From: a virus
Lineage: Duplodnaviria; Heunggongvirae; Uroviricota; Caudoviricetes
Length of the DNA stretch: 37,319 nucleotides
Virus record (IMG/VR): IMGVR_UViG_2645727743_000020
Span: 1 to 37,319 of that record
Strand: one strand, 5' to 3'
In this document: positions 332 to 30,690 of the stretch, one piece after another
Layout of the letters: the number at the start of each line of letters is the position of its first letter
How positions within the stretch are numbered: position 1 is the first letter of the stretch
Made by a program: the position numbers and the translations under genes
The notes under the pieces: model-generated
What the model saw: the letters and a program-made list of their open reading frames with translations, nothing else
What the model was told of the DNA's origin: nothing
Databases searched by the model: none

Positions 332-592
332 TTAATTCTGAGGTAAAGGCAAGCTCATCTGATTGTTTCCCCTGTGTGAAGCTGGCAGCTCATGCCACGG
401 GATACCTTCTGAAGAGTGAACGCCGGAGGCGTGTTTCGATGTGAATTTATGGAAAGCTTCCAGTGTTGAGAAGCATACGCCGCATTCCAGATTGTTACAC
501 TGGTAATACTTTTGCCGTACGGTGTTTGAATCATTTTCCGGGCGACTGGTGCGGATACGGGCAGATGCGCCACAAAGCGGACAACGGAACAT
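332..592 (-). CDS. ogr: Ogr/Delta-family zinc-finger late-gene transcription activator
   Basis: MFRCPLCG...RTSR...YYQCNNLECGVCF matches the Cys4 zinc finger of P2 Ogr (MFHCPLC...RTSR...HQCQNVNC); GGGAGG SD 5 nt upstream of ATG 592; about 14 aa longer than P2 Ogr at the C-terminus. Confidence 0.85.
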   Translation of the reverse strand: MFRCPLCGASARIRTSRPENDSNTVRQKYYQCNNLECGVCFSTLEAFHKFTSKHASGVHSSEGIPWHELPASHRGNNQMSLPLPQN

Positions 593-2285: not shown

Positions 2286-3395
2286 TCACTCTGTTTCTGC
2301 TATCCATTCCGGGATTTTTGCTTCAAGCTCAAGCCGCGTGGTAAAACCGCTGTTATCAATAGAGTGCTCCGCTTTTGCAATAATCCAGTCCTGATTATCA
2401 ATGTCGCTTTTGAAGCCTGTCACCGTGCCATGCATTTCGGGGTAGAGTTCTGCGCGGCCACGCGCCAGCGTGATGGAAAAAGATGCCGCTCCGCGCTGTA
2501 GCTGCTGCCACTTTGCAGCTGCTGCGCGCCTTGCTGCCTGCTCGTTCTGATAAGTCTTGCGTAACACAAACACATTGCCTTCCGCGCCTTCCATATAATC
2601 ACCTTCACGGCTGCTGCTTTTCTCCTTTTTGGGTTTTGGCGGTTTGCGGCGTTTCACGCTGACTTTTTTCTTTTTCCCGTAATTAAGATCAAGCCAGTAA
2701 GCGCGTACCCCCGTATACGCCTCGCGGTCAGCAATGCGGAACTGATGGCGATCGCCGCTGCTGCGTGTGATGGCGAACGATGGCAACGGCTGGCCCTGTG
2801 CGTTCACGCCACCGCCGGGCATGATGAATAACAGATTACCGCTTTTTACCGTGGTGATTGCGCCCAGCATTTCCGCCATGCGCGTAAGGAAGGACATGTC
2901 GCTTTCTTCAGTCTGGTCGGCGTGGTCGATTTCGATATCCATCAGCATTTCGCTGATTTGCGGTTTCAGACCATACCGATGAGCGATGGCGGATACCACA
3001 CGCTCAATGGTCACATCATGCCAGGACACCTCACGTTTAACGTTAAATTCATCCCGAAAATCTGCGCTTCTGGCTGAAACAGTCAGCCTGTCCGGCGGTC
3101 CTTCGTGAGCGATTTCATCAACAATGTAAGTGCCTTTTTCTGTCAGTGGTTCTCCTTTCCAGCCAATGAGAACCGTCAGGCGCGCGCCCCGTGGCGGTAG
3201 CTGCAACTGACCATCCGCATCATCCAGCGTGATGGTGAGCTGGTCCGCCTCAAATCCCCGGTTGTCGGTCAGTGACAGGCTCATCAGGCGCTCGGCCACG
3301 CCTGACAGCGTTTTACCCTCCGCGAGAATATCAAAATCCGGCATTTTCACGGGGTCTGTGCCCTGACTGAGCAATTGCATGGTGGTGTCGGTCAT
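2286..3395 (-). CDS. D: Tail protein D (late control gene D homolog)
   Basis: 369 aa from ATG 3395 with GGGAGGGAA SD; track ORF extends to 3527 but has no better start; length and position match P2 gpD. Confidence 0.85.
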   Translation of the reverse strand: MTDTTMQLLSQGTDPVKMPDFDILAEGKTLSGVAERLMSLSLTDNRGFEADQLTITLDDADGQLQLPPRGARLTVLIGWKGEPLTEKGTYIVDEIAHEGPPDRLTVSARSADFRDEFNVKREVSWHDVTIERVVSAIAHRYGLKPQISEMLMDIEIDHADQTEESDMSFLTRMAEMLGAITTVKSGNLLFIMPGGGVNAQGQPLPSFAITRSSGDRHQFRIADREAYTGVRAYWLDLNYGKKKKVSVKRRKPPKPKKEKSSSREGDYMEGAEGNVFVLRKTYQNEQAARRAAAAKWQQLQRGAASFSITLARGRAELYPEMHGTVTGFKSDIDNQDWIIAKAEHSIDNSGFTTRLELEAKIPEWIAETE

Positions 3396-3552
3396 CTGTT
3401 CCCTCCCTGTGCGGCATGGTCGCATGTGCGTGCGGAGGGGGTTACTGCTTTTTGTTGTCGCCGTGGCGGGAGAACGGCGCAGGGGTGAGATTACGCGCGT
3501 GGTGGGTGATGATTGTTGCCGAATCATTTAACGGATACAAGGGGCTGAAGCT

Positions 3553-4737
3553 ATGAGTGAAACTCGTTTTCATGGTGCCCGTGTTACGGAAAATACCGAC
3601 CTGGTAACAGCGATTAACGATGTTGATTCCAGCGTTATCGGTATCGTGGCAACGGCGGATGATGCGGACGCGAAGCTGTTCCCGCTGAACAAGCCCACAC
3701 TGCTGACCCGCGTCACTGACGTGCTGGGAAAATGCGGGACAACGGGGACGCTTTATCGTGCGCTTAAGGCCATCGCAGACCAGGTGAGCACAAAGGTGAT
3801 CGTCGTTCGCGTGGCTGAACACAAAGAAGAAGACGGAAAAACGCAGGATCAACTGGTTATCGGTGGTTCTGAATCTGACGGCAGCTATACGGGGATGTAT
3901 GCGCTGCTTGTTGCAGAGCAGGATGAAAGCATCGGATACCGTCCGCGTATTCTGGCCGCGCCGGAGCTGGACACGGAGGCGGTAACAAAATCCCTGTGCG
4001 TGATTGCGGGTAAACTGCGCGCGTTTGTGTATGCCTCATGTCACGGCTGTAACACGATGGCTGAGGCGATTACCTACCGCCAGAAATTCAACGAACGTGA
4101 GGTGATGCTCTTATGGCCGGACTTCATCGCCTACAACCCGAAAAGTGGCAAAAACGAAACGTTCCCCGCGCCTGCCTATGCGTGCGGCCTTCGTGCGTAC
4201 ATTGACCATGAGCAGGGCTGGCACAAATCGCTGTCCAACGTTCCGGTTAAAAATGTGCTGGGGATGTCCAGGCATGTGTTCTGGTCGTTGCAGGCCGAAG
4301 ACAGTGATGCCAACAGCCTCAACAACAAAGAAATCACGACCATTATTCGTCGCAACGGGTTCCGCTTCTGGGGCAACCGCACACCGGAAACGAACGCCTA
4401 CATCTTTGAGGTGTATACCCGAACCGCACAGGTGCTGGCTGATTCAATTGCGGAAGCGCAGTTTGAAACCATCGACAGTCCACTGACGCCTGCGAACGTG
4501 AAAGATGTTATCAGTGCCATCAGGGCAAAACTGGATTCACTGGTTACTGCCGGGAAACTGATTGGCGCGGAGTGCTGGTATGACGTGGTGGATAACAGCA
4601 CCACGGATTTACGTCAGGGGCGTGTGCGTATTCGCTACAAATATACGCCCGTTCCACCACTGGAAGACATGGAGCTTTACCAGACGTTTACTGATGAATA
4701 CTTTGAACCCGCATTTGCGGTGCTGGGAGGTGCCTGA
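3553..4737 (+). CDS. FI: Contractile tail sheath protein FI
   Basis: 394 aa (P2 FI about 396 aa); stop overlaps FII start (TGATG); first gene of the tail operon. Confidence 0.9.
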   Translation: MSETRFHGARVTENTDLVTAINDVDSSVIGIVATADDADAKLFPLNKPTLLTRVTDVLGKCGTTGTLYRALKAIADQVSTKVIVVRVAEHKEEDGKTQDQLVIGGSESDGSYTGMYALLVAEQDESIGYRPRILAAPELDTEAVTKSLCVIAGKLRAFVYASCHGCNTMAEAITYRQKFNEREVMLLWPDFIAYNPKSGKNETFPAPAYACGLRAYIDHEQGWHKSLSNVPVKNVLGMSRHVFWSLQAEDSDANSLNNKEITTIIRRNGFRFWGNRTPETNAYIFEVYTRTAQVLADSIAEAQFETIDSPLTPANVKDVISAIRAKLDSLVTAGKLIGAECWYDVVDNSTTDLRQGRVRIRYKYTPVPPLEDMELYQTFTDEYFEPAFAVLGGA

Positions 4738-5249
4738 TGGCTGTACCAAAACATCTTCGCTTTTTTACGCTGTTTGTGGATGGTGAAAACGAAGTGGGTA
4801 AGGTGACGTCCGTCACTCTGCCTAAGCTGACGCGCAAAACCGACAGTTACCGGGGTGGTGGCATGATGGGTGCGGTAAGTATTGATCTCGGTCTGGACGA
4901 CTCCGCGCTTGATGCGAGCTTTGTCATGGGGGGCGCAGTTCGTGAGCTGTTCCTTAAGTATGGCGGCACGATTGACGGCACGCTGCTGCGTTTTGCGGGT
5001 GAATACTACACCGATGCAGAAAGCGACCTGTATGAAGTCGAAATGCGCGGACGTGTGACGGAAATTGATATGGGGGAAGCCAAACAGGGCGAAGCCACAT
5101 CACACACTTACGCCATTAAAAACACCTACTACAAGCTGAGTGTTAACGATCGCCCGTTGTGGGAGATTGACCTGCTGAACTTCATTTACCGGAAGGACGG
5201 CAAGGACATTGTGCCCGATCGCATCCGTTCCGCGCTCGGGCTTGGCTGA
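4737..5249 (+). CDS. FII: Tail tube protein FII
   Basis: 170 aa (P2 FII about 172 aa); translationally coupled to FI. Confidence 0.9.
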   Translation: MAVPKHLRFFTLFVDGENEVGKVTSVTLPKLTRKTDSYRGGGMMGAVSIDLGLDDSALDASFVMGGAVRELFLKYGGTIDGTLLRFAGEYYTDAESDLYEVEMRGRVTEIDMGEAKQGEATSHTYAIKNTYYKLSVNDRPLWEIDLLNFIYRKDGKDIVPDRIRSALGLG

Positions 5250-5303
5250 TAAGTAATATGCAGGCGGCGCAGTGCGTCGCCTCTGACTGAAAGGAGTTTC
5301 CTG

Positions 5304-5669
5304 ATGAAAGAGACGAAAAACATCGATACCGAAAACACGGTAGTTACTGACACTGTGAAAGAAACCAGTGAGCGTGGCGTAAAACTTACCCAACCAATTG
5401 AGCGAGGCGGCGAAAAAATCACGTATGTGGAGATCACCGGGGCTATTGAGCAGGCTGGATCTCTGCGAGATTTGTCGCTGTCTGATGTGCTGAATCTGAA
5501 AGCGGAATCCATGTTTACGCTGCTGTCACGCGTGACATCACCGCGACTGGATGAAGTGACGATCAAAAAAATGGCATCCCGTGACTTTATTCAGTTATGT
5601 GTGGTTGCCGTAAATTTTTTGAGCGGTGCGGACTCTGGCGGGAAGAACGAACAGGCGACGGAAGCCTGA
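5304..5669 (+). CDS. E: Tail assembly chaperone E
   Basis: 121 aa, directly upstream of the tape-measure gene; contains the slippery heptamer. Confidence 0.85.
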   Translation: MKETKNIDTENTVVTDTVKETSERGVKLTQPIERGGEKITYVEITGAIEQAGSLRDLSLSDVLNLKAESMFTLLSRVTSPRLDEVTIKKMASRDFIQLCVVAVNFLSGADSGGKNEQATEA

Positions 5670-5833
5670 TCACGGTTGTGTGCTTTGAGCACATAGAAGA
5701 CTTTGTGGCTGATATTGCCGCCATTTTTAACTGGTCGCCCGCCGAAATCTTCATGATGACGCCCGGCGAAGTGGTTAGCTGGCGTGAGCGGGCGGCACTT
5801 CGCAGCGGGAATGCAGACAATGAAGACTCTTGA
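5304..5833 (+). CDS. E': Tail assembly chaperone E+E' made by programmed -1 frameshift
   Basis: Slippery T TTT TTG at 5615..5621 in the E frame; the -1 frame continues open to 5833 (track ORF 5597..5833 is the E' part); same arrangement as P2 E/E'. Confidence 0.7.
5615..5621 (+). promoter_or_regulatory. Programmed -1 ribosomal frameshift slippery heptamer (TTTTTTG)
   Basis: Codons AAT TTT TTG in the E frame verified against the E C-terminus VAVNFLSG; -1 slip gives FFERCGLW, which matches the overlapping ORF. Confidence 0.7.
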
Positions 5834-8627
5834 TATCCGGGTCGCTTTCAGCGCCGTTGACAGGCTGACCCGGCCTGCCGAAAACGCCCGCCGCCTGATG
5901 GGGCAGTTTGGTGACTCCATCCAGCGAACGCAGGGGGCGATCAAAAATCTCGAGCGTCAGGCGCGATCATTTGAGCGCGCCCACGACGCTGTCAGTAAAG
6001 CGGATGCTGGCATCGTGAAAGCACGACGCCAGCTTAACGCCCTTAATCAGTTACAACGCACGGGTACAGTGCTCAGCGAAAAACAACAAAAGCTGATGCA
6101 GCAGTTAAGCACCCGGCTTGAACGCCTGAATGAATCGCGCACACGGGAAATTCAGAAAATGCGGGAACTTGGCGGAGAGCTGAAACGCCACGGCATTTCC
6201 CTGACAGGCAGCGATAACACAATCCAGCAGGCCATCAGACGCACCGAACAGTACAACAACCAACTTGAACGCGAACGGCAGGCGCTTGCGCGTGTAACGC
6301 GGGCGCGTGAGCGGTATTCGCGCGCGCAGGAAACCGCGGGAAAACTGAAAACAGGTGGTGCGCTGGCAATTGGTGCTGCAGCGGCTGGCGGCTATGCTGC
6401 CGGGCGTTTTTTGCAGCCTGCGATCGGGTTCGGCAAAGAGATGTCCCGCGTTCAGGCACTGACGCGAATCGACAAAAACAGCCCGCAGTTTAAGGCGCTG
6501 CGTGAGCAGGCGTTAAAACTTGGTTCTGAAACACAGTTTACTGCGAGTGATGCCGCCAGTGGGCAGAGCTTTCTGGCAATGGCTGGTTTTACTCCGCAGG
6601 CCATTCAGGCCGCATTGCCCGGTGTTCTTAATATGGCGCTGGCAGGTGGCGTCGAACTCGGCGAGACGGCGGATATAGGCTCCAATATCCTCACACAGTT
6701 CAACCTGACAGCCGATCAAATGGACCGGGTTGGCGATACGCTGACAGCGGCATTCACCCGGACCAATACTGATTTACGCGCGCTGGGCGAAACCATGAAG
6801 TATACCGGTCCGGTTGCCGCAAAACTTGGTATCAGTCTTGAAGAAGCGGCAGCCATGGCCGGGATGCTTGCCAATAATGGTCTTCGTGGAAGCGATGCTG
6901 GTACGGCCATGCGCGCAAGTCTGTCCCGCCTTGCATCACCGCCAAAAGCTGCGGCTGATGCGCTGAAAGAGCTGGGGGTGTCAGTTGCTGACGCCAGAGG
7001 CAAAATGCGCCCGATGGAGGATGTGCTGCTTGATCTCTATAAGGCGACACAAAAATACGGACAGGTGGACCAGGTCTCCTTCTTCAAGGACATCGCCGGA
7101 GAAGAGGCGTTCGTTGGTTTGCAGACGCTTGTTGCGGCGGCTGGTTCAGGAGAGCTGCAAAAACTGACCAGAGAATTGCAGGGGGCAAGGGGAGAGGCCG
7201 ATCGCGTTGCAAAAGTAATGGCCGATAATCTTGATGGGGACCTGAAAAATCTCGACAGCGCATGGGAAGGTCTTCGTATTCGCATCAGTGATCTGGTTGA
7301 CGGTCCGCTGCGTTCTGTCACGCAGTGGCTCACGCGGGTGCTTGAAAAAATCACCTCGCTGGCGCAGGCCCATCCGGTACTGACGCGCCAGCTACTGATA
7401 GCAGGCGGTGCGTTGCTGGCAATGACTGCAACGATTGGCTCGTTGTCGCTGGTTATTGGGGTGCTTTACGGGAAGCTGGCCACCCTGCGTCTTGGTTTTG
7501 ACATTCTTACCCGGTCAATGAATGTCGTCAGGGTGTTGCCTGCGCTGTGGGGAATGGTGACGGGTTCCGTTTCTTTGCTGGGAGGCGCTATCGGGGCGCT
7601 GTTCAGTCCGGTTGGTCTTATCGTGGCTGCGCTTGCCGGAGCTGCCGTTCTTATCTGGAAATATTGGGATCCCATCAGGGCATTTTTTGCCGGGTTGTTC
7701 AGCGGGATTATGGAAAGGCTGAACCCGTTGCGTGAAACCTTTGAACGGTTTGGTCCTGTTTTTGACGCAATCGGAAGCGGGATCAGCCAGGTGTTTAACT
7801 GGTTTAAATCGCTGCTGTCACCGATGGAGTCCAGCAAGGAAACGCTGGATAAATGTACCAGTGCTGGCGAGATATTCGGTAACGCTCTTGGTGGCGCGCT
7901 ACAGCTTGTTCTGACGCCTGCAAAAATGTTGCTGGATACGCTGGCGTGGATACTTGAAAAACTCGGTGTGCTTCCGGATGAAGCGGAAAGGGCGAGAAAG
8001 AAAATCGAAGACGCACAGCGTGCGGCCATTCTTCAGGACAAGGTTGCTCTGTTTCAGGGAGACATTGCGAAAATCAATCCGCCGAGGTCTGCGGAAAATG
8101 GCAATGGCACCGGAGGCGATAAACCCAAAGACAACAAACCGCTCACAGACAGCAATACCGGCACGCTACGCAGACTCAGCAAAATTGCTGATAACACAGG
8201 TAAGCTGGTTGATGAGACAAAAAAACGTATTGGCCCCGGCGATATTGTCTTTAAGAACCTGCCCCGCGCACTTGCTGTTCGTGGGGAGTGGCAGGAGCGG
8301 AAGATTGCACAGGTCAGTAAGCCTGCCCCCGCAATGAATATCACCCCCGTGGTCCCGGCTCCGCTGCCTCCGGCGCTGGTCCCTGTTGTTGCGGCCAGCT
8401 CCCGCCCGGTGGCGGAGGCCATACGATCTCCAGTGGCATCAGTTCCTGTAACTTCCCGTAACCGGGAGCCTGTTGCCTCCAGATTTGGTGGTGAAATTCA
8501 TGTTCATCTGCATAACGTTGTTACGCAGAATCCCCGCGAACTGGCGAAACTGGTCGGTGAAATGGTCAGGGCAGAAATGGAACGGCGCGCCCGTGCCGGG
8601 CGTGGCAGTTTTTACGATAAAGATTGA
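5820..8627 (+). CDS. T: Tail tape measure protein T
   Basis: Long Ala/Gly/Leu-rich protein with coiled-coil N-terminus and hydrophobic central segment; start set at ATG 5820 (MKTLDIRV) just before the E' stop; track offers GTG 5784 and ATG 5811 as alternatives. Confidence 0.85.
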   Translation: MKTLDIRVAFSAVDRLTRPAENARRLMGQFGDSIQRTQGAIKNLERQARSFERAHDAVSKADAGIVKARRQLNALNQLQRTGTVLSEKQQKLMQQLSTRLERLNESRTREIQKMRELGGELKRHGISLTGSDNTIQQAIRRTEQYNNQLERERQALARVTRARERYSRAQETAGKLKTGGALAIGAAAAGGYAAGRFLQPAIGFGKEMSRVQALTRIDKNSPQFKALREQALKLGSETQFTASDAASGQSFLAMAGFTPQAIQAALPGVLNMALAGGVELGETADIGSNILTQFNLTADQMDRVGDTLTAAFTRTNTDLRALGETMKYTGPVAAKLGISLEEAAAMAGMLANNGLRGSDAGTAMRASLSRLASPPKAAADALKELGVSVADARGKMRPMEDVLLDLYKATQKYGQVDQVSFFKDIAGEEAFVGLQTLVAAAGSGELQKLTRELQGARGEADRVAKVMADNLDGDLKNLDSAWEGLRIRISDLVDGPLRSVTQWLTRVLEKITSLAQAHPVLTRQLLIAGGALLAMTATIGSLSLVIGVLYGKLATLRLGFDILTRSMNVVRVLPALWGMVTGSVSLLGGAIGALFSPVGLIVAALAGAAVLIWKYWDPIRAFFAGLFSGIMERLNPLRETFERFGPVFDAIGSGISQVFNWFKSLLSPMESSKETLDKCTSAGEIFGNALGGALQLVLTPAKMLLDTLAWILEKLGVLPDEAERARKKIEDAQRAAILQDKVALFQGDIAKINPPRSAENGNGTGGDKPKDNKPLTDSNTGTLRRLSKIADNTGKLVDETKKRIGPGDIVFKNLPRALAVRGEWQERKIAQVSKPAPAMNITPVVPAPLPPALVPVVAASSRPVAEAIRSPVASVPVTSRNREPVASRFGGEIHVHLHNVVTQNPRELAKLVGEMVRAEMERRARAGRGSFYDKD

Positions 8628-8633
8628 GGAGTC

Positions 8634-9128
8634 ATGGCCATGATGATGATCTACGGCATGTTTGTTTTTGAGCTGCGCACGCTGCCGCATCAGCAGTTAC
8701 AGCAAAACAAAAGCTGGCGGCATGTGAAAAATGAACGCGTTAACCGTTCAGCAAGCTGGCAGTATATCGGTGCAGGTGATGATCGCATCGTTCTTTCTGG
8801 TGTGCTTTATCCTGAAATTACAGGTGGCGAAGTGTCGCTGTCGCTGCTGACCACGCAGGCGTATACAGGACGACCCTGGCCTTTGATTGATGGCGTCGGG
8901 CAGATTTACGGCATGTATGTCCTGACTGGAACGAATACGACCCGTTCCGAGTTTGATCGCTACGGTAAGGCGAAAAAGATAGAATTTTCACTGACCCTTG
9001 AACGCTGTGATGAGGATTTGCGGGAGCGCCTGCAATCCTCATCGTTCAGTGATATGCTGTCCGGCTTCAAAGATAAGGTCACATCATCCCTTAACAGCGC
9101 GGCCAGCTCCGTTAAAGGGCTGTTTTGA
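8634..9128 (+). CDS. U: Tail protein U
   Basis: 164 aa (P2 U about 159 aa), YGMFVFELRTLPHQ N-terminus, immediately after T. Confidence 0.85.
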   Translation: MAMMMIYGMFVFELRTLPHQQLQQNKSWRHVKNERVNRSASWQYIGAGDDRIVLSGVLYPEITGGEVSLSLLTTQAYTGRPWPLIDGVGQIYGMYVLTGTNTTRSEFDRYGKAKKIEFSLTLERCDEDLRERLQSSSFSDMLSGFKDKVTSSLNSAASSVKGLF

Positions 9129-9154
9129 TTAACGCAAAACCGCTAATGGTCAGA

Positions 9155-9754
9155 TTAGTGGTTTTCATTTTCCTGAGTCTGCCTGGTTGTTTCTTCAGCC
9201 TGTATATCGCCTACAGGGTGATAACGATAAATCGTCGATATGCCGATGTCGTAAATGATCGCCAGTTGTTTTCTGTCATGACCGTTTTTGATCAGCCTTG
9301 CTATTTGCTCATGCTGTTCTTTTGTCAGCTTCGGGCGACGTCCGCCTGTGCGCCCCCGTGCGCGCGCTGCCGCCAGTCCGGCCAGTGTACGTTCAACAAT
9401 TAATTCACGTTCCATTTCAGCCAGGGCACCCATCACGTGGAAGAAAAAACGCCCCATTGGAGAAGATGTATCTATGCTGTCGGTCAGACTGCGAAAATTA
9501 ATCCCTCGCTCCCGTAGTTCTCCGACGAGAGAAATCAGATGTTTCATGCTTCGCCCAAGGCGATCCAGTTTCCAGACAACCAGCGTGTCACCTTTTTGAA
9601 GCCGCTTTAAAGCGCGTTTTAATCCCGGTCGGTCTGTCTTTGTCCCGCTTAATTTATCTTCAAATATTTGTTCACATCCTGCACAAACAAGAGCGTTTCG
9701 TTGCAGGTCTGTATTCTGGTCATTTGTTGATACCCTTACATAACCAATCAGCAC
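9155..9754 (-). CDS. Serine DNA invertase, Gin/Pin/Cin/Hin family
   Basis: VLIGYVRVSTNDQNTDLQRNAL N-terminus with catalytic Ser and a C-terminal HTH; start placed at GTG 9754, which reproduces the Gin/Hin N-terminus (track ORF begins at TTG 9772). Confidence 0.9.
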   Translation of the reverse strand: MLIGYVRVSTNDQNTDLQRNALVCAGCEQIFEDKLSGTKTDRPGLKRALKRLQKGDTLVVWKLDRLGRSMKHLISLVGELRERGINFRSLTDSIDTSSPMGRFFFHVMGALAEMERELIVERTLAGLAAARARGRTGGRRPKLTKEQHEQIARLIKNGHDRKQLAIIYDIGISTIYRYHPVGDIQAEETTRQTQENENH

Positions 9755-9808
9755 ACTGAATCTCCCGTCCAAAAGCGCAAATCATGCCATGCAGGCCGGA
9801 AACGGCCA

Positions 9809-9834
9809 TTATCTAAAACCTCGGTTTACAGGAA
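9809..9834. repeat. gix-like invertase crossover site, left
   Basis: TTATCTAAAACCTCGGTTTACAGGAA, a 26-bp two-half-site sequence with central GA; inverted repeat of 12881..12906 (23/26 identical). Confidence 0.8.
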
Positions 9835-10842
9835 ACGGTAAACAGGGCCAGGAACGCCGTGCAAAAGAATGGCGATACCTTGTCCGGTGGGCTTACTTTT
9901 GAAAACGACTCAATCCTTGCCTGGATTAGAAATACTGACTGGGCAAAGATTGGTTTTAAAAATAATGCCGACAGCGACACTGATTCATACATGTGGTTTG
10001 AAACAGGCGACAACGGCAATGAATATTTCAAATGGAGAAGCCGCCAGAGCACCACAACAAAAGACCTGATGACTCTTAAATGGGATGCTTTGTCTGTCCT
10101 TGTTAAAGTCCTTTTCAGCAGTGAAGTAAAAATATCGACAGTCAATGCACTGAGGATATTTAATTCATCTTTTGGTGCTATTTTTCGTCGTTCTGAAGAA
10201 TGCCTGCATATCATCCCTACACGAGAGAATGAGGGAGAAAATGGTGATATAGGGCCACTACGCCCCTTTACGCTTAATCTCAGAACTGGTCGGATAAGCA
10301 TGGGGCATGGTCTTGATGTTACAGGGGATATATTTGCAAACCGTTTTGCAATTAACAGTAGTACCGGCATGTGGATTCATATGCGTGACCAGAATGTTAT
10401 TTTGGGACGCAATGCGGTATCCACCGATGGTGCACAGGCATTACTTCGTCAGGACCATGCTGATCGCAAATTTATGATTGGTGGACTGGGAAATAAGCAA
10501 TTTGGCATCTACATGATTAATAACTCAAGGACAGCCAATGGCACCGATGGTCAGGCGTACATGGATAATAACGGGAACTGGCTTTGCGGCTCGCAAGTTA
10601 TTCCCGGCAACTATGGCAATTTTGATTCCAGATATGTGAAAGATGTTCGACTTGGTTCACAGCAATATTATGGAGTGAACAACTGGCAAACATGGAATTT
10701 CCAGTGCCCGTCAGGTCATGTATTGTCTGGTATTAATGTTCAGGATACAGGGTCCAACTCTGCCGATAATATAGCGGGCGTTTATTACAGACCCGTTCAA
10801 AAGTATATAAATGGCACCTGGTATAATGTAGCGAGCGTTTAA
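9835..10842 (+). CDS. Alternative tail-fibre C-terminal cassette (Sv'), promoterless in this orientation
   Basis: Open frame begins inside the left gix site and encodes [19 protein letters not shown]..., i.e. the same junction residues as H at the right site (LGLQETVN); ends ...[12 protein letters not shown] like the H C-terminus; track ORF 9859..10842. Confidence 0.75.
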
Positions 10843-10843
10843 T

Positions 10844-11371
10844 ATGATGCACTTAAAGAACATAAAAGCGGGTAACGCTAAAACACTGGAACAGTATGAG
10901 TTAACAAAGAAACACGGAGTTATCTGGCTTTACTCTGAGGACGGAAAAAACTGGTATGAGGAAGTGAAAAACTTTCAGCCAGACACAATAAAGATTGTTT
11001 ACGATGCAAATAATATTATTGTCGCCATCACTAAAGATGCCTCCACGCTTAACCCTGAAGGTTTTAGCGTCGTTGAGGTTCCCGATATAACAGCCAACCG
11101 CCGCGCTGATGATTCAGGAAAGTGGATGTTTAAGGATGGAGCTGTAGTTAAACGGATTTATACGGCAGACGAACAGCAACAACAAGCCGAATCACAAAAG
11201 GCCGCATTGCTTTCCGAAGCTGAATCAGTCATTCAGCCGCTGGAACGCGCTGTCAGGCTGAATATGGCAACAGACGAGGAACGCACACGACTGGAAGCAT
11301 GGGAACGCTACAGTGTTCTGGTCAGCCGTGTGGATACGGCAAATCCTGAATGGCCACAAAAGCCTGAGTAA
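10844..11371 (+). CDS. Tail fibre assembly protein, partner of the silent Sv' cassette
   Basis: 175 aa; N-terminal 110 aa closely similar to the 11400..11933 product (MMHLKNI.AGN.KT.EQY.LTK...[23 protein letters not shown]), divergent C-terminus. Confidence 0.85.
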
Positions 11372-11376
11372 AAATT

Positions 11377-11396
11377 AAGGCCCGATATCGGGCCTT
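11377..11396. terminator. Perfect 20-bp palindrome between the convergent tfa genes (putative bidirectional terminator)
   Basis: AAGGCCCGATATCGGGCCTT lies between the stops at 11369..11371 and 11400..11402, flanked by A/T runs. Confidence 0.5.
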
Positions 11397-11399
11397 CTC

Positions 11400-11933
11400 T
11401 CATTCTGGTTGTTCGGGAAACGTTACTGGCAGGCTGGAAGTGTCTGTAGATTCGACTTTCTGCGCAAAGAGCATCCACTCTGTTAATTTTTGTTTATTCT
11501 CGTCGGAAATGATGCCCAGCCGTAGCTGTGAGTCCCATAGCTGGGTTTTATCCCTGACGAGCTGTAGCAGGTTTTGCTTTTCATTTTCCGCCTGCTGCCT
11601 CTGCTCTTCCTCGGTATAAGTTCGCTTTACCACTACGCCATCTTTGAACATCCATTTACCCGAAATGTCAGCACGGCGATTTGCTGTAATATCAGGTAAT
11701 TCAACGACGCTTGCGCCTTCCGGATTAATTGCTGAAACATCCTTTTCAATACAAATAATAACGCCGTTATGGTCATAGACCATTTTCAAAGTGTCTGGCT
11801 GGAAATTCTTTTGTTCCTCATACCAGTTTTTTCCATCCTCTGAATAAAGCCATTTGATGTTAAATTGTTTCGTTAGCTGGTATTGCTCTTTTGTTTTAGG
11901 GTTGCCAGCAGTAATGTTTTTTAAGTGCATCAT
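11400..11933 (-). CDS. G: Tail fibre assembly protein G (expressed orientation)
   Basis: 177 aa directly downstream of H on the same strand. Confidence 0.85.
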   Translation of the reverse strand: MMHLKNITAGNPKTKEQYQLTKQFNIKWLYSEDGKNWYEEQKNFQPDTLKMVYDHNGVIICIEKDVSAINPEGASVVELPDITANRRADISGKWMFKDGVVVKRTYTEEEQRQQAENEKQNLLQLVRDKTQLWDSQLRLGIISDENKQKLTEWMLFAQKVESTDTSSLPVTFPEQPE

Positions 11934-11935
11934 CG

Positions 11936-14038
11936 TTAAATACTCCCCGCGTTATACCACGTCCCATTAATGCAATACTGAATTGGCCTTGCCTGAGTTG
12001 TATCAATTAATTCATCACGGTTTCCGTTAACTGAACCCGTAACGACATAACCTGACCTGTCAGACCAGCCGGGACCATTCCATGTCTGAACAGATGACAG
12101 ACCGCCAAGGCGAATACCTGTAATAAACCTTGAGTTACATTCTGCCTGCGTGTATGCACCAACATCTCCCGCAGAGGGTTTGCGGGTCGTGGTGTAAAAC
12201 TCTGACCAGTCAGCCTCAAATCCATAACCATCACGCGCTGAACGATAAAAAATACCGCCGTTCCTGTAATTCACGCGGAACTGTACAGCAGGGCAGCTCC
12301 CCGTATTCATATTGAAGTGGAGGATTAATGTCGATGCGCCACCAATGTTTGCGTTATAGACCCCGCTATTCCAGTTCCAGCCAACAGCTTTATCATTTCC
12401 GACAGTGCTTCCTGTTTGCCCTAAAGCAAATGCAGGTTGTTGATTTTTCGTGTTGTAGTCTCGTCGCCAGCCAGGAGCGTAAGCATCACCATGATTAATA
12501 TAAGTGAATTGAGCGTTAGTAATTCCGCCACCGCTGGACGTGCTCGGCGTGGTAACGCGTATGGTCATTGCGCCGCGAGTGCCAATAACTTCCACCACAG
12601 CACCTGCAAGACAAATATTTCCGCAACCTGTATCTGTAATGACCTTATTATTTGCATAAGCCCATGAGCCTTTGCACATCCAGTAAGGATGGTTAAATGC
12701 TCCCTGACTCTCCAGCCACGAAATAAATTGCGCGGTTGTCCAGACCTGACTATCGCCACCAATATTCAGCCATGAGCTATATGCGCGGCAGGCACCAATA
12801 TTTTTGGTGAAGGTATCTTTCCCCGGAATATCTGCGCCGTTCTGGTTTTTCTGTAATGCGCCAGAAGCCTGATTTACCGTTTCCTGTAAACCGAGGTATT
12901 CGATAACAGCGGCAACGGTCGATTTCGCAAGAATATCCCGCCCGACTTCTGTCAGGGTTGCCAGACTGGCAACATCATTCCCCGTAAAATACGGAAACCT
13001 GTCTGCCGCAGTAGCAAGCCCGGCCAGCGCCGTCAGGGTGGCATCTTTCGGTTGCTTACCCGCAAGCGCGTTAGTCATGGTGGTCGCAAAATTCGGGTCG
13101 TTGCCCAGCGCCGCCGCCAGCTCGTTCAGCGTGTTCAGTGCGTCAGGTGAAGAGTCTACAAGTGCGGCAATCGCGGCCATAACGAAAGCCGTGCTTGCGA
13201 TTTGGGTATTATTCGTTCCCTGTTGTGCAGTTGGTGTTGTTGGCGTTCCGGTCAGTGCCGGGCTGTTTAATGGGGCTTTCTTGTTCGTTTCATCCATTAC
13301 CGCCTTAACCGCTTTTGGTGTCGCTGCCAGCGTTTCAGACGTGCTGTTGGTTGCACTGCTGAGCTGGACTATCCCTTTTCGTGCCGTCGTGGCGTCCTGA
13401 GCGGTATATTTTCCGTTAGCCAGGTCATACGCGGCCTTAACCGCTTTCGGCGTTGCGGCCAGCGTTTCAGAATCGCTGTTAGTGGCGCTACTGAGTTGAA
13501 CAAAGCCTTTTGCGGTCAGCGAGGCATCCGGGTGACGTCGTGACTGTTCATGCTCTTTCAGTTTGTCATCCACGTAATCCACTGTGGCCATCACCATGGT
13601 GTTATCCACGGTAAGCGCCACGGTGGCAGTGCTGGATACGGTTAGAATGGTGCGAAATGTTTGTGCACGTCCGGACCCCTCGGCAACGGTTGGCTTGTAA
13701 CTTTCGGCAGTATTGCCCACCGCGATTAAATCGCCGTGCTCATCAAATACACCAATTTCCCGGATCCAGAATCCGCCCGTTTCAGGAGGAATAACCAGCT
13801 CCGCAATAATGCGGTTCTGATGTGTTGCGTCCAGGATGACGCGATTAACAGTGTGTCGCCACACCTCATGCACCAGACGGGTCTGCTTACTGTCTGGTGT
13901 GGGCAACGTGCCGCCACCGTCGCCCACGGCCATATGAGTCAGGCGGACAGGCTTACCATCTGGCGCGGCTGCCTGAGCTAATTTTTTTGCACCCGTATCG
14001 GTGATAACGGTTTTAAATTTTCGTGTTGTGGTACTCAT
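11936..14038 (-). CDS. H: Tail fibre protein H (constant N-terminus plus currently expressed variable C-terminus)
   Basis: 700 aa (P2 H about 669 aa) with Ala/Thr-rich repeats; right gix site falls at about residues 378-386. Confidence 0.9.
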   Translation of the reverse strand: MSTTTRKFKTVITDTGAKKLAQAAAPDGKPVRLTHMAVGDGGGTLPTPDSKQTRLVHEVWRHTVNRVILDATHQNRIIAELVIPPETGGFWIREIGVFDEHGDLIAVGNTAESYKPTVAEGSGRAQTFRTILTVSSTATVALTVDNTMVMATVDYVDDKLKEHEQSRRHPDASLTAKGFVQLSSATNSDSETLAATPKAVKAAYDLANGKYTAQDATTARKGIVQLSSATNSTSETLAATPKAVKAVMDETNKKAPLNSPALTGTPTTPTAQQGTNNTQIASTAFVMAAIAALVDSSPDALNTLNELAAALGNDPNFATTMTNALAGKQPKDATLTALAGLATAADRFPYFTGNDVASLATLTEVGRDILAKSTVAAVIEYLGLQETVNQASGALQKNQNGADIPGKDTFTKNIGACRAYSSWLNIGGDSQVWTTAQFISWLESQGAFNHPYWMCKGSWAYANNKVITDTGCGNICLAGAVVEVIGTRGAMTIRVTTPSTSSGGGITNAQFTYINHGDAYAPGWRRDYNTKNQQPAFALGQTGSTVGNDKAVGWNWNSGVYNANIGGASTLILHFNMNTGSCPAVQFRVNYRNGGIFYRSARDGYGFEADWSEFYTTTRKPSAGDVGAYTQAECNSRFITGIRLGGLSSVQTWNGPGWSDRSGYVVTGSVNGNRDELIDTTQARPIQYCINGTWYNAGSI
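12881..12906. repeat. gix-like invertase crossover site, right (inside H)
   Basis: TTCCTGTAAACCGAGGTATTCGATAA, inverted relative to 9809..9834; encodes AVIEYLGLQE in the H frame. Confidence 0.8.
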
Positions 14039-22295: not shown

Positions 22296-22449
22296 AGTTT
22301 TTGCCCCTCTGACTGGTTCTTCAGTCATGATGGCAAAGCGTAACAGGCTGATACAAAGGGCTTTTGTTGTAAGAAAACGGCCAGAACAGGGGGTTAAGGA
22401 GAACGGTTTCGCGCGCGGGTAATCTTCCTGTAATTACTCAGGGGGAGCA

Positions 22450-25299: not shown

Positions 25300-25723
25300 C
25301 TCTCCAGCTCCTGTATCAATCAGATAATTTCACGACGCTTTTCTGCTTATTGCCATCATCGGCGGTCAGACTCTTACGCAATCCCACCGCGTTGACTGCA
25401 TGTTCTTCGCCGCCTCAGTGCGATTTTGACGGCCTTACCTTTCACCCCATCAAATCAGAATCCCTCACGTATTTTTCACGCTCAGCGTGAGAAATACAGC
25501 CATTCTGTTGTGTCTCTGCGACATCGTTCAGGGAATGCTATTTACCCCCTGAAACGCGGGCTGTTCCCCCGTCACCTGCGCGCAGAAAAAGCGCGTTTTT
25601 TTGTGCACGCACGGATCCCTGACGGATCCAGCCGCCACGCGGGCCAGAAGGGCAAAAATTCGTTCAAAAAAATTGTGCAAATTTGTGCACTATCGTGCAT
25701 GTAAATTCATAAAAAAATTACAG

Positions 25724-25752: not shown

Positions 25753-27957
25753 TTACGTGTCGAGAGAAATTTGTGTGCGCAGTTGAATAGGATTCAGAAT
25801 TGTATATCGCTGGCGAATAACATTATATAAATCAAAGTCTTTTACCCTTACGCTTATTACCATCGCATATTGCATATCAGGGGCTGAAACTCCCTTAACA
25901 TGGCGCGAAGAATCTCGGGCATGATACCGTATATCAAAAACTGGATCGCTTAATAATGTATCAGCACTGAACTTTTTGCTTCTGTGCAAACAAGTTTCCC
26001 ACTTATGACCTTCACTCCTACACTCCCTTTCAGTCTTATACTGGCTTTTTTGACCAAAGAAATCATCTGTATCGGTATCGTCAAGGCCGAATCTTGGGCG
26101 GAAAGTTACCTGCATACCGGCCCTTGTATAGTTTACTGAATGTTCAGGATCTACTGGGGTTTGAATGCATAAAGTAGCGGTAAGCTCAAATGCTTCGTCA
26201 AAGGGAACATCAGGGAATGGGATCGGTGCCCTTAAATATTTATTTTTTGCTAATGAACCATAGTAAATTACTGTAGCAGTATCATTTGGACAATCGATTA
26301 AAACGTTAGGATCCTCACTAAACCGTCCCCAACCGATATGTTCACGCGAATATTTTCTTGATGTTTCAGCATGATGAACAAGCAACGCTTTCAATGCAAT
26401 GGTGTTCAATGGAGTTCCTGATAGAGCCGCAACTCCAGCGGCCGTTCTCAATGCTAATGGAGAGGCATAACTGGTTCCTTGAACTCCAACTATAGAACCA
26501 AGCAGAGGGTTGTAAGTGTAAAAAGGCTCGTCGTCGCTTCCACCAAAAATAACACCATCAGGTTTAACGAATCCGGGGCTTCTGCCTGGCCCAATACAGC
26601 TATATGGTGCCCGCCCCCATTTTTCACCGCTACGATCAGCAGCACCAATCGCTAGCGCGTTTACCATATCGGAAGGAGGTTGTATTCTCGCTGCATCACC
26701 GTCCTCATTGCCATCATTCCCAACAGCAACAGTAAGTAATATCCCATGCTTAGCACAGATTTGGTCTAAAACAGCAGTCCATACATGAACCTCATCATCA
26801 CCAATTGGAAGATGAGGACCAATACTTAGATTAGCGAACTTATAGTCACCACTATCAAGAACGGACTGTATTTTCTTAAGGACATCAAATAAATCCCAAT
26901 TGCCATTGTCACCTGATGTCGGTGAAAGAACTCTATAATGATCTACATTCATAAACGGTCTTTTAAAAGAAGGTGCATTTTCCTCGACACGTCCGAATAA
27001 GAAAGTGGATGTCACTTCATTACCGTGCTGCAATAATAATCCGCTTGTTTCTTTGGTGTCTGGATACACGTATTCCGTAACCCAATTACTCAAGTCAGCT
27101 GTCCCCAAGCCACCATCAAAAATGGCAATACGTTCGGATTCAAGAACAGCTTTAGAATTAGGGAGCTCTGGTGTAACTATATTAGATAACTTTCTGACAA
27201 TGTTCGGCTGAGTACACCTGAGAGACGGCATCGGCCGCACAACGCGGATTAATGAAAAATCGAGTGTTTTTTTCATATCTTCAGGTCGCGCGTGTGCAAC
27301 GATGAAAGTCAGCCCACCAACTTGGATTCTACTTTTGTAATCAACAGAGACATCATATTGTGCCGCATAGCTAATATAGGCTTTAACGATATCATCGTCT
27401 TCAACCCCAGCATGAAGAACCACTTCAAATTTTATCAAATCACTTTTCGCATGCTCAAAATTGCGTGCTCTCTCTTTTCCTTCAAAAAAGCTAACACTTT
27501 CAATTTCGATCAAATCCTTTTGTACGCCCTTCGGAGCTGTAGGGGAATTTAAAATTTCCTTAAATCTTATAACGGCATCATCATCACCGCTAACAAACAG
27601 TTGCGCCGTTACTAAGTCCTTATTCTGATCGCACTGACGTGCCGCTTTCCGTGGGCGAATGATTACCTGACGGCTACCGACATCCCGTAAACCTGTCGCT
27701 CTAAGCAATCCTTCCGGAAAGTAGCTTTTACCCAAAAACGCTGGGTGTAAAGTTAAATTGAATACACTCTCCCCCCTTGGCTTAGCCGCATCATCCAAAC
27801 TGCGAAAGCGTGAGAGTAAAGTATCAATCTCTGGGTTTAAATGCTCCCTTACTTCTTCAAGAGTATAGGGATAGCGCTTACCATCCCTTCCTTTAGGCAA
27901 AGGTTCCTTTTTTGTCAGAACATGACCGTTACCTAAAAGTAAGTTCCTTTCCATCAT
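25753..27957 (-). CDS. S8-family subtilisin-like serine protease with a roughly 270-aa N-terminal domain of unknown function (IetS-like candidate)
   Basis: Catalytic triad motifs in order: IAIFDGG (Asp), HGNEVTS (His), GTSYASPLA (Ser, the GTS-x-A-x-P signature); 734 aa; start overlaps the ATPase stop by 4 nt. Confidence 0.85.
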   Translation of the reverse strand: MMERNLLLGNGHVLTKKEPLPKGRDGKRYPYTLEEVREHLNPEIDTLLSRFRSLDDAAKPRGESVFNLTLHPAFLGKSYFPEGLLRATGLRDVGSRQVIIRPRKAARQCDQNKDLVTAQLFVSGDDDAVIRFKEILNSPTAPKGVQKDLIEIESVSFFEGKERARNFEHAKSDLIKFEVVLHAGVEDDDIVKAYISYAAQYDVSVDYKSRIQVGGLTFIVAHARPEDMKKTLDFSLIRVVRPMPSLRCTQPNIVRKLSNIVTPELPNSKAVLESERIAIFDGGLGTADLSNWVTEYVYPDTKETSGLLLQHGNEVTSTFLFGRVEENAPSFKRPFMNVDHYRVLSPTSGDNGNWDLFDVLKKIQSVLDSGDYKFANLSIGPHLPIGDDEVHVWTAVLDQICAKHGILLTVAVGNDGNEDGDAARIQPPSDMVNALAIGAADRSGEKWGRAPYSCIGPGRSPGFVKPDGVIFGGSDDEPFYTYNPLLGSIVGVQGTSYASPLALRTAAGVAALSGTPLNTIALKALLVHHAETSRKYSREHIGWGRFSEDPNVLIDCPNDTATVIYYGSLAKNKYLRAPIPFPDVPFDEAFELTATLCIQTPVDPEHSVNYTRAGMQVTFRPRFGLDDTDTDDFFGQKSQYKTERECRSEGHKWETCLHRSKKFSADTLLSDPVFDIRYHARDSSRHVKGVSAPDMQYAMVISVRVKDFDLYNVIRQRYTILNPIQLRTQISLDT

Positions 27958-29036
27958 TTAATCCCCCACTTTTGTAATTTATTCGCGATTGTTGGATGTG
28001 AAACACCAACTAATTCAGCTATCTTCCTATTTGAAAAACCGTCAAAATGATATTTAATTATATTGAGATCATTATCGCTAAACTCATCCAATGAAACCCT
28101 CTCCGTAATTACGGCTTCTATTAATGAGCTTTCAAATGGAATATTTCTAAGTACCTCATTCTTTTTGGAGAAATTCAAAATACGGTTAATGATGGCAAAG
28201 GACATGCCATCTAATAATGGTGCAAGTTTTTTAGATAGTTCAGGTTCAATATTATGATTGACTAAATATCTATCTATCAGTTCTACTGATGGCATATTAA
28301 ATTTAAGGATGTGCTCAAATCGACGCCAAACAGCCGGATCTAAGATATCAGGGTGATTAGTCGCAGCAACAAGAAGCGAGGTCGCTGGCCACTCATCTAT
28401 GGTCTGTAGGAGTACAGTAACTAAACGTTTTAATTCTCCAACGTCCCTGTCATCATCACGTCTTTTTGCAACAGCATCAAATTCATCAAGCAAAAGGACA
28501 CATGGTTTCTCTTTGGCATAATCCATAACGGATTTAATATTATTACCTGTTTTTCCCAAAAGAGAACTCATTACAGATGAGAGATCCAATGTTAAAAGAG
28601 GTAAATTTAACTTTGCAGCAAGCCAATGTGCGGACATTGTTTTGCCTACGCCTGGCGGGCCAGAAAGTAAAACCGTCTTCACAGGTTCAAGACCAGCTTT
28701 GAACAAAGAAACCGCATTCTCTCTTTCGTTAACAATTGACTCCAGCTTCTTTGAGATATCCGTATTCCATACAGGTTCTTCAACAATTGCGTTGACAGAT
28801 GTTTCCTGCAAAAGGTTTCGTCTGGAGTCTCCATCCACAGGCATAGGAGCCTTACTAGATGCCCCACGTAATACTGTTCCCTCAGCAACTAACGAAGCCA
28901 GCTTAGAAGCTAAAGCCTCATCATTTTTACGGATGTTGTTAATCATCTTTCTGCATAGGAGTGTAAATGCATTTGCGTTGCCTTTGATGCCTTGCTCGAT
29001 GAGTTTGAAAAGTTCATCCTCCCTCACGTTTACCAT
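27954..29036 (-). CDS. AAA+ ATPase with C-terminal LuxR/sigma-70 region-4-like HTH (IetA-like candidate)
   Basis: Walker A GPPGVGKT, Walker B VLLLDEFD, sensor/arginine-finger ATNHPDILDPAVWRRF; C-terminal NRKIAELVGVSHPTIANKLQKWGI; ATG 29036 with GGGGG SD. Confidence 0.85.
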   Translation of the reverse strand: MVNVREDELFKLIEQGIKGNANAFTLLCRKMINNIRKNDEALASKLASLVAEGTVLRGASSKAPMPVDGDSRRNLLQETSVNAIVEEPVWNTDISKKLESIVNERENAVSLFKAGLEPVKTVLLSGPPGVGKTMSAHWLAAKLNLPLLTLDLSSVMSSLLGKTGNNIKSVMDYAKEKPCVLLLDEFDAVAKRRDDDRDVGELKRLVTVLLQTIDEWPATSLLVAATNHPDILDPAVWRRFEHILKFNMPSVELIDRYLVNHNIEPELSKKLAPLLDGMSFAIINRILNFSKKNEVLRNIPFESSLIEAVITERVSLDEFSDNDLNIIKYHFDGFSNRKIAELVGVSHPTIANKLQKWGIK

Positions 29037-29730: not shown

Positions 29731-30690
29731 TTACTCCTTGTCCATTGCGTACAGCCCATTAACCAGAGCAAACTGTGGCACCCCGTCCGCGATGAAAGTC
29801 GCATTAACTCCGCAGGCTTCGCGGATAGCGGGTGCCACAATCTCCGCCCCTCCACCGACAACCATCACCCGCCCGTAACCCGAAAAAACCGCCAGCGCGC
29901 GGATCACGCGTTGTTTCAGTGTTTCTTCCTTTTCACGAATAACCGCCATCAGGCTGGCGTAATGCGCGTCATTGTGGATGTGCTGGCGCAGCCAGGCTTC
30001 ATCATGGCGATGTTCGATAATGGTATTGGCGATGTGGTGACTGGTGCGCATACCGTTAGTGGCCATCACCGACAGTACGGCATCGGCCATCAGAGAAACG
30101 CCTACGTGTGGATCGCAAAACACCTGGCTGATACCTGCCAGTTGCCCCTGAACCTTTGCCACATCCAGCGTGGTTCCGCCCAAATCCACAATCAGCAGGG
30201 ATTCAAACGGACTCATGTCAGCCAGTGCCTTAAAGCCAGCCGGAATGGATTCAGGCATAACCCGCACGTTACGGATAGTGAATGCCTCACCGTTCTGGTA
30301 CTCCACCGGGCGCATAACGTTTGCTTTTTTGCGGTTGATGTTGGCCATGTCCGGCTGGGCGTTAGTGTCGAAATATTCGCTCAGTGGCAGGGTGACAACC
30401 ACATCCACTTCCTGTGGCGTGATGCCTGATTTGACCAGCGCGTGATGAATGGCAATGACATTCACATCGCTGTACTGGTATTGCGTGTCGGTCGTCTGGA
30501 CAAAGCGATCGCTGACCGGATCAAAACCATAGCGCACGCCATCAAGCATGTAGTTCGCAGGCTGCGAGCCACCGAACGGTGCAGACCATTCCGACTTGAA
30601 GCTGTTCGGGCTGATGGCGTTGCGGCGTTCGCCGTTTTCAGTCCATGCCAGCTTGATGTTGGTGGAGCCGTCGTCGATACAAATTTTCAT
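29731..30690 (-). CDS. parM: ParM/StbA-family actin-like segregation ATPase
   Basis: 319 aa; IDDGSTNIKL, ISPNSF, YSDVNV, HHAL, KANVMRPVE, VMPESIPAG, LLIVDLGGTTLD, VVGGGAE, LVNGLY all align with R1 ParM (recalled from memory). Confidence 0.9.
   Translation of the reverse strand: MKICIDDGSTNIKLAWTENGERRNAISPNSFKSEWSAPFGGSQPANYMLDGVRYGFDPVSDRFVQTTDTQYQYSDVNVIAIHHALVKSGITPQEVDVVVTLPLSEYFDTNAQPDMANINRKKANVMRPVEYQNGEAFTIRNVRVMPESIPAGFKALADMSPFESLLIVDLGGTTLDVAKVQGQLAGISQVFCDPHVGVSLMADAVLSVMATNGMRTSHHIANTIIEHRHDEAWLRQHIHNDAHYASLMAVIREKEETLKQRVIRALAVFSGYGRVMVVGGGAEIVAPAIREACGVNATFIADGVPQFALVNGLYAMDKE

Follow-up and report, generated by a model that had tools for sequence, protein, structure and literature searches.

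The 37,319-nucleotide stretch of DNA analysed here (the window) is a complete and intact P88-like (Xuanwuvirus-type) prophage of the P2 family, with its map reversed relative to P2. The inversion of its tail gene block is the normal inherited gene order of the P88/Xuanwuvirus-type lineage, and there is no present-day flipping. We consider it very probable that this order goes back to one ancient, fixed inversion, and that a single Ogr dyad now serves two divergent late promoters, pF and pD. Somewhat less firmly, we favour a reading in which the inversion split the F operon into two divergent late units, with the pF dyad reused bidirectionally, a new -10 element and a monocistronic D, the whole being a synapomorphy of a large clade.

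The plus strand carries FI, FII, E/E', T and U (3553-9128), the minus strand D, H, ogr and the invertase (Table 1). The initial annotation had described the FI-U block as inverted relative to P2 synteny with these same strands, which both the Pfam matches and the identities to the P2 proteins confirm. It also placed the start of D correctly, at the ATG at 3395, leaving a spacer of 157 bp to FI; this start has a GGAGGG ribosome-binding site and agrees with the P88 annotation. A longer D ORF reaching up to 3527 was rejected as the true start, as P88 D has 366 aa. The ogr gene, on the other hand, had been assigned to an ORF at 355-573, which is the wrong frame.

Table 1. Features of the window discussed in the text, with positions, strands and supporting evidence.
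Feature	Position	Strand	Evidence or remark
ogr, zinc-finger late activator of the ogr type	332-592	-	PF04606 Ogr_Delta, E=5e-14; 42% identical to P2 Ogr
D, tail/baseplate hub protein gpD, divergent from FI	2286-3395	-	PF05954, E=1e-16; 48% identical to P2 D
D/FI divergent intergenic region	3396-3552		157 bp; putative bidirectional late promoter
Predicted -10 of pD	3416-3421	-	GACCAT
TGT-N12-AGA dyad, putative Ogr binding site	3456-3473		TGTCGCCGTGGCGGGAGA; single TGT-N12-A(C/G)A in the spacer
Predicted -10 of pF	3508-3513	+	GATGAT
FI, tail sheath	3553-4737	+	PF04984, PF17482, PF22671; 46% identical to P2 FI
FII, tail tube	4737-5249	+	PF04985, E=7.5e-47
E	5304-5669	+	tblastn to P2 E; P88 annotates both E and E'
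E'	E + E' span 5304-5833	+	-1 frameshift at slip site TTTTTTG, 5614-5620
T, tape measure	5820-8627	+	PF10145, E=1.6e-56; ATG at 5820 fits the length of P88 T
U, tail protein	8634-9128	+	PF06995, E=1.5e-38
Terminator-like hairpin at the end of U	9104-9122		contains an arm of the 9-bp repeat
Terminator-like hairpin between convergent U and invertase	9136-9165		overlaps the 'gix half-site' at 9129-9141
Serine invertase of the Gin/Cin/Hin type	9155-9772	-	PF00239 and PF02796; 91-95% nucleotide identity to Mu/D108 gin
Invertible tail-fibre segment	9809-12906		bounded by gix-like 26-bp sites at 9809-9834 and 12881-12906
H	11936-14038	-	
Matching TGT-N12-AGA dyad	22368-22385		in the P/O divergent late-promoter spacer

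Beyond H follow baseplate, head and lysis genes, P/Q, A, C and int, and homologues of all P2 structural proteins were found in the window. The late tail module is P2-like, as all seven genes of the P2 F operon (FI FII E E' T U D) have homologues, the -1 frameshift of E/E' included. Unlike in P2, D is found outside the F operon, divergent from FI across the spacer, and U is convergent with the invertase. Hence there is no co-directional FI-through-D operon, FI to U being on the plus strand and D on the minus strand, and this departure is clade-wide. The proteins of the FI-U block are 32-47% identical to those of P2, which is the same range as for Q, P, N, V, J and D. We therefore rejected the idea of the block as an imported, foreign module, since its divergence from P2 equals that of the rest of the genome.

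The same layout is widespread in complete E. coli genomes. We used an 8.2-kb query running from D to the invertase; in 1,101 of 5,426 complete genomes, one colinear match took in at least 80% of it. The query was also colinear with the phages P88, P884B11, 500465-2 and Citrobacter phiSM at 93-97% identity. For P88 it gave 94.8% identity over 92% in a single colinear piece, in agreement with the gene table. In P88, P884B11 and phiSM (Xuanwuvirus, Peduoviridae) the coverage of the region is 92-99% and the nucleotide identity 93-97%, and by its identity to and colinearity with P88 and P884B11 the window belongs with Xuanwuvirus. In all, the inverted layout was colinear in 13 phage records. The P88 and phiSM annotations have an order and strands identical to those of the window, the P88-like order being D(-), FI to U(+), invertase(-), invertible fibre segment and H(-).

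The window differs from the P88-like phages in its cargo and in its tail-fibre alleles. Between D and ogr, P88 has hok/gef, while the window carries two other ORFs in a low-GC insert (905-2052), one of them with a weak resemblance to the PsyrT/ShosT C-terminal region. At the old/tin position the cargo of the window is IetAS; this IetA/IetS defence pair (25753-29036) is in a low-GC region between Q/cos and parM, and a ParM-like gene is found at 29731-30690.

Further we wanted to place the inversion among more distant relatives. An alignment of D proteins was searched against one genome per species, and the resulting 80 D loci were classified by tblastn with window and P2 proteins. The inverted order (J+ I+ H+ ... 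U- T- FII- FI- D+ ogr+) was found in 48 loci from more than 20 genera, and the canonical co-directional order in 31; in the remaining locus neither FI nor U was found. The D proteins of the inverted loci are about 60-98% identical to that of the window. Their hosts include Salmonella, Trabulsiella, Symbiopectobacterium, Edwardsiella, Serratia, Erwinia, Enterobacter, Pantoea, Kosakonia, Pectobacterium, Citrobacter, Brenneria, Klebsiella, Xenorhabdus, Photorhabdus, Providencia, Morganella, Hafnia and Yersinia, among others.

The 48 inverted loci form one clade in each of the trees of D, FI and U, which were built by quick neighbour-joining and carry no support values. The inverted layout is also present in other ICTV genera, as in Salmonella SEN5 (Senquatrovirus) and Klebsiella 3LV2017 (Reginaelenavirus). 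The outgroups Ralstonia RSA1 and Mannheimia phiMhaA1 are canonical, as is Burkholderia KS5 for T-U-D. As the inverted loci make up one clade and the outgroups have the canonical order, the simplest reading of these sequences would be a single, old and derived inversion in the ancestor of the enterobacterial clade. This clade comprises Xuanwuvirus, Senquatrovirus, Reginaelenavirus and many unnamed prophages of Enterobacterales, and it may include the R-type tailocin loci of Pectobacterium, Kosakonia, Pantoea and Xenorhabdus. The inverted gene order as such is already known from annotated genomes in public databases, which cover at least three ICTV genera. We found no remark on the inversion or on a promoter for D in the literature on P88, SEN4/5, P2-like diversity, tailocins and Burkholderia P2-like phages.

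With D cut off from the F operon, the initial annotation had proposed that either D has its own promoter within 3396-3552 or the prophage is tail-defective. The comparative data favour the first of these, and D probably has its own late promoter in the D/FI spacer. Of the 47 inverted loci measured, 46 have a spacer of 140-164 bp; in the outlier (L065, 249 bp) the start codon was miscalled. An alignment of 47 distinct spacers showed conserved blocks. Of 46 distinct relatives, 43 have a TGT-N12-A(C/G)A site at the position aligned with the dyad of Table 1, and three have no exact match; in the window the dyad ends in AGA and not in ACA. Counted over the window, the bare motif occurs 27 times against 32.6 expected, so that it shows no enrichment and is no evidence when taken alone. 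Near the presumed cos region, a match to TGT-N12-ACA (25506-25523) has no flanking -10-like elements.

In the relatives the centre of the dyad is 78.5-88.5 nt from the ATG of FI, mostly about 82 nt, and mostly 65-82 nt from the ATG of D, with one locus at 55.5 nt. In P2 the annotated activator site of pF has its centre 83 nt from the ATG of FI; in canonical relatives this distance is 79.5-83.5 nt. Since the distance is as in P2 pF and in the canonical relatives, the FI side seems to be the ancestral pF, moved together with the block.

We then anchored the spacer sequences on the dyad, with no gaps allowed. Among the 43 inverted-clade sequences, the FI side has an invariant A at +44, A at +47 and T at +48, giving a hexamer of the form xAxxAT, along with a conserved CGTGA at +19 to +23 from the dyad centre. 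These -10 positions are conserved at identical offsets in canonical pF, and the -10 offset of P2 pF itself is the same as in the window. On the D side the mirror-image positions -49/-48/-45 are conserved in the inverted clade, with an information content of 1.05-1.73 bits. As a control, the canonical pF regions anchored in the same way showed no conserved positions on the left (D-side) flank. Mirrored -10-like elements are thus seen about 44-49 nt from the dyad centre on either side.

This arrangement resembles a known case in P2, where according to the annotation one activator site (3057-3087) serves both pP and pO, 55-56 nt from each start. The D/FI spacer has the predicted geometry of this type: one dyad halfway along a spacer of some 150 bp, with the putative starts of two divergent late genes about 55 nt to either side of it, and a -10-like element on both sides. 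In the window the gene pair is D/FI, and both the starts and the Ogr dependence are predictions. The window's own P/O spacer, of about 154 bp when the P88 O start is used, contains the second predicted Ogr site, and the ogr gene itself is present. An extended motif, CTTTT(T)GTTGT-N12-AGAAC, is common to the D/FI and P/O spacers. We considered whether the D/FI spacer could be a copy of the P/O spacer and rejected this, as only the activator motif is shared. From these observations we infer a bidirectional, Ogr-dependent promoter in the D/FI spacer.

An alternative is that the layout is a lineage feature while D is transcribed from a promoter independent of Ogr, constitutive or otherwise controlled, with no shared activator site. 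The conserved GC-rich CGCGCG block on the D side, which is not seen on the FI side, would fit such a promoter. However, in 43 diverged sequences the distance between the dyad and the D-side -10-like element is fixed and mirrors that on the FI side, the spacer length is tightly constrained, and the geometry equals that of P2 pP/pO. We consider this alternative unlikely.

Under the shared-dyad reading, the FI-FII-E/E'-T-U block would have been inverted once, long ago, and the inversion fixed in the ancestor of the Enterobacterales peduovirus clade. One breakpoint would lie upstream of the pF activator site and the other between U and D. With a breakpoint there, the old pF promoter would have travelled along with FI and would now abut the start of D. 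The single dyad-symmetric Ogr site could then serve two divergent late promoters. The rightward pF would start near 3520 from its predicted -10 (Table 1) and have a leader of about 33 nt. The leftward pD, specific to the lineage, would start near 3409 and have a leader of about 15 nt beginning at the ribosome-binding site. With one dyad serving both, D would be made late from its own short-leader transcript, in a scheme of one site and two promoters that mirrors pP and pO of P2. The invertase beside U switches only the tail-fibre segment.

It could also be argued that the layout is real but D is orphaned, so that the prophage or the whole lineage is tail-defective or dependent on a helper. D is indeed cut off from the direction of the F operon promoter, and a sigma-70 consensus scan of the D/FI spacer found no promoter, as is expected for activator-dependent promoters, so that the scan lends the promoter model no support. 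Against this, P88 is inducible and plaque-forming, with a burst size of about 65 and a contractile tail of 137-140 nm by EM (PMC5285337). As P88 is functional with an identical layout, the inverted order is compatible with a working tail. In addition, the database entries of phiSM and SEN5, both with the inverted layout, are complete phage genomes; the D ORF is intact, and its conservation over the clade falls no lower than about 58% identity; and no P2 structural homologue is missing from the window. An orphaned D, and with it the tail defect suggested at first, thus seems very improbable.

The initial annotation regarded the inversion as a possible event, either a flip by the adjacent invertase or a misassembly. 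A recent or ongoing inversion would require quasi-gix sites at about 3530 and 9110-9140 on which the serine invertase acts, so that the block could be switched. The invertase does abut the right junction, a 9-bp inverted repeat joins the two junctions, and a sequence resembling a half-site in 8 of 12 positions is found at 9130-9141. Cin and Gin are also known to use quasi-sites. We probed the junctions in both orientations. A 1-kb probe over the native D/FI junction was contiguous in 1,110 E. coli genomes, while a synthetic probe for the canonical D/U junction, made by flipping the block, had its halves matched in 1,415 E. coli genomes and was contiguous in none of them. With only one orientation found among these close relatives, both misassembly and an actively switching segment are ruled out.

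The invertase itself is not a constant neighbour of the block. Only about 6 of the 48 inverted loci have a homologue, and three canonical loci (L051, L072 and L082) have an invertase in the same slot, immediately upstream of FI. The adjacency is hence incidental, and the invertase occupies a variable slot downstream of the fibre genes. Flipping 3396-9154 in silico, which had been said to restore the canonical order with the invertase at the Z/fun position, does give the order of these three canonical loci.

The crossover sites point in the same direction. The true substrates of the invertase in the window are the two gix-like sites bounding the fibre segment; they form a 34-nt inverted repeat, 94% complementary, and are the only two positions in the window scoring 24/24 against the half-site set. 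This gin-like invertase and gix-flanked fibre segment resemble the Mu G and P1 C segments (Gin/Cin/Hin/Pin). Unlike those segments, the FI-U block has no 26-bp sites and is found in one orientation only. The best full-site scores at its borders are 15/24, no better than at random positions of the window, so no inverted 26-bp pair flanks 3396-9154. An inverted-repeat scan of 3300-9300 likewise found nothing joining the block borders beyond chance.

The two short motifs reported at the junctions are both present. An inverted match at least as long as the 9-bp repeat (3527-3535 and 9108-9116) also arose in 52 of 2000 shufflings of the two junction windows, and the repeat has no conserved counterpart across 44 inverted loci. 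The gix-like half-site TTAACGCAAAACC at 9129-9141 matches the true half-sites at 8 of 12 positions, as do 542 12-mers in the window. A terminator scan along with MFE and centroid folds placed both motifs within terminator-like hairpins (Table 1), which explain them in a more ordinary way. On the plus strand the hairpin at 9136-9165 has a 12-bp stem between runs of A and T, in the MFE and the centroid fold alike; the minus-strand fold of the hairpins gives a stem of 6+5 bp with one internal mismatch. Both motifs are at chance level, and an invertase-driven flip of the block is hardly credible. A misoriented block as an artefact of assembly, for which nothing speaks but the departure from P2 synteny, can practically be dismissed, as identical junctions are found in about 1,100 independent complete genomes and several independently sequenced phages, and the junctions have no long inverted repeats able to mislead an assembler.

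The related phages, to which the initial annotation had referred the question, share the arrangement of the window, and in P88 it is functional. Departures from P2 synteny of this kind should not be flagged as a rearrangement, a misassembly or a defective prophage, since about a fifth of complete E. coli genomes carry the inverted layout. The inversion is also a simple structural marker, dividing the enterobacterial peduoviruses into two groups. Finally, the D/FI spacer is a candidate case of promoter reuse following a rearrangement, in which one Ogr dyad would act in two directions.

The D/ogr slot, which in most relatives is a gap of about 45 bp and in P88 is filled by hok/gef, holds in the window an insert of two other open reading frames of low GC content (see table). 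Neither matched any Pfam family; the 195-aa product shows a weak match to the C-terminal part of the defence toxins PsyrT (E=1e-7) and ShosT (E=2e-3). The insert may be a small cargo with a role in defence or as a toxin.

A two-gene anti-phage defence pair, IetA and IetS, was detected by PADLOC with E-values of 3.6e-89 and 6.6e-41, roughly at the place where P2 carries old/tin. The cargo region holding the pair is low in GC (39-43%) and is bounded by the Q/cos end and parM.

Non-coding DNA follows Q; within it, close to the presumed cos region, TGTTGTGTCTCTGCGACA at 25506-25523 is an exact match to the Ogr-type motif TGT-N12-ACA, with a core like that of the P2 pO/pP site. Since neither flank has -10-like elements at the expected spacing, we consider this match probably due to chance.

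The invertible segment next to the gin-like invertase contains two alternative tail-fibre C-termini along with two tail-fibre assembly genes, and its parts share 91-95% nucleotide identity with the G/C segments of Mu, D108 and P7 and with gin.

Genera with studied P2-like R-type tailocins (carotovoricin, kosakonicin, pantailocin and xenorhabdicin) also hold loci where the FI to U block is inverted relative to D, an overlap seen at the genus level. Among the 80 D-gene loci compared, these are L019 and L048 in Pectobacterium, L020, L022 and L026 in Kosakonia, L015 in Pantoea, and L029-L049 in Xenorhabdus and Photorhabdus.

Positions in the window of the accessory features discussed in the text.
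Feature	Position	Strand	Remark
Two ORFs, 185 and 195 aa	905-2052	-	separate D from ogr
Invertible tail-fibre segment, gin-like	9809-12906		26-bp sites 9809-9834 and 12881-12906, perfect-scoring
Tail-fibre assembly gene	10844-11371	+	
Tail-fibre assembly gene	11400-11933	-	
IetA/IetS pair	25753-29036	-	
IetS	25753-27957	-	S8 subtilase-like
IetA	27954-29036	-	AAA ATPase
ParM-type actin-like segregation ATPase	29731-30690	-	PF06406 and PF21523

The ParM-type gene adjoins replication gene A, as it does in P88, and this hints that at some stage the lineage can exist as a plasmid-like replicon, being maintained or partitioned in that form.
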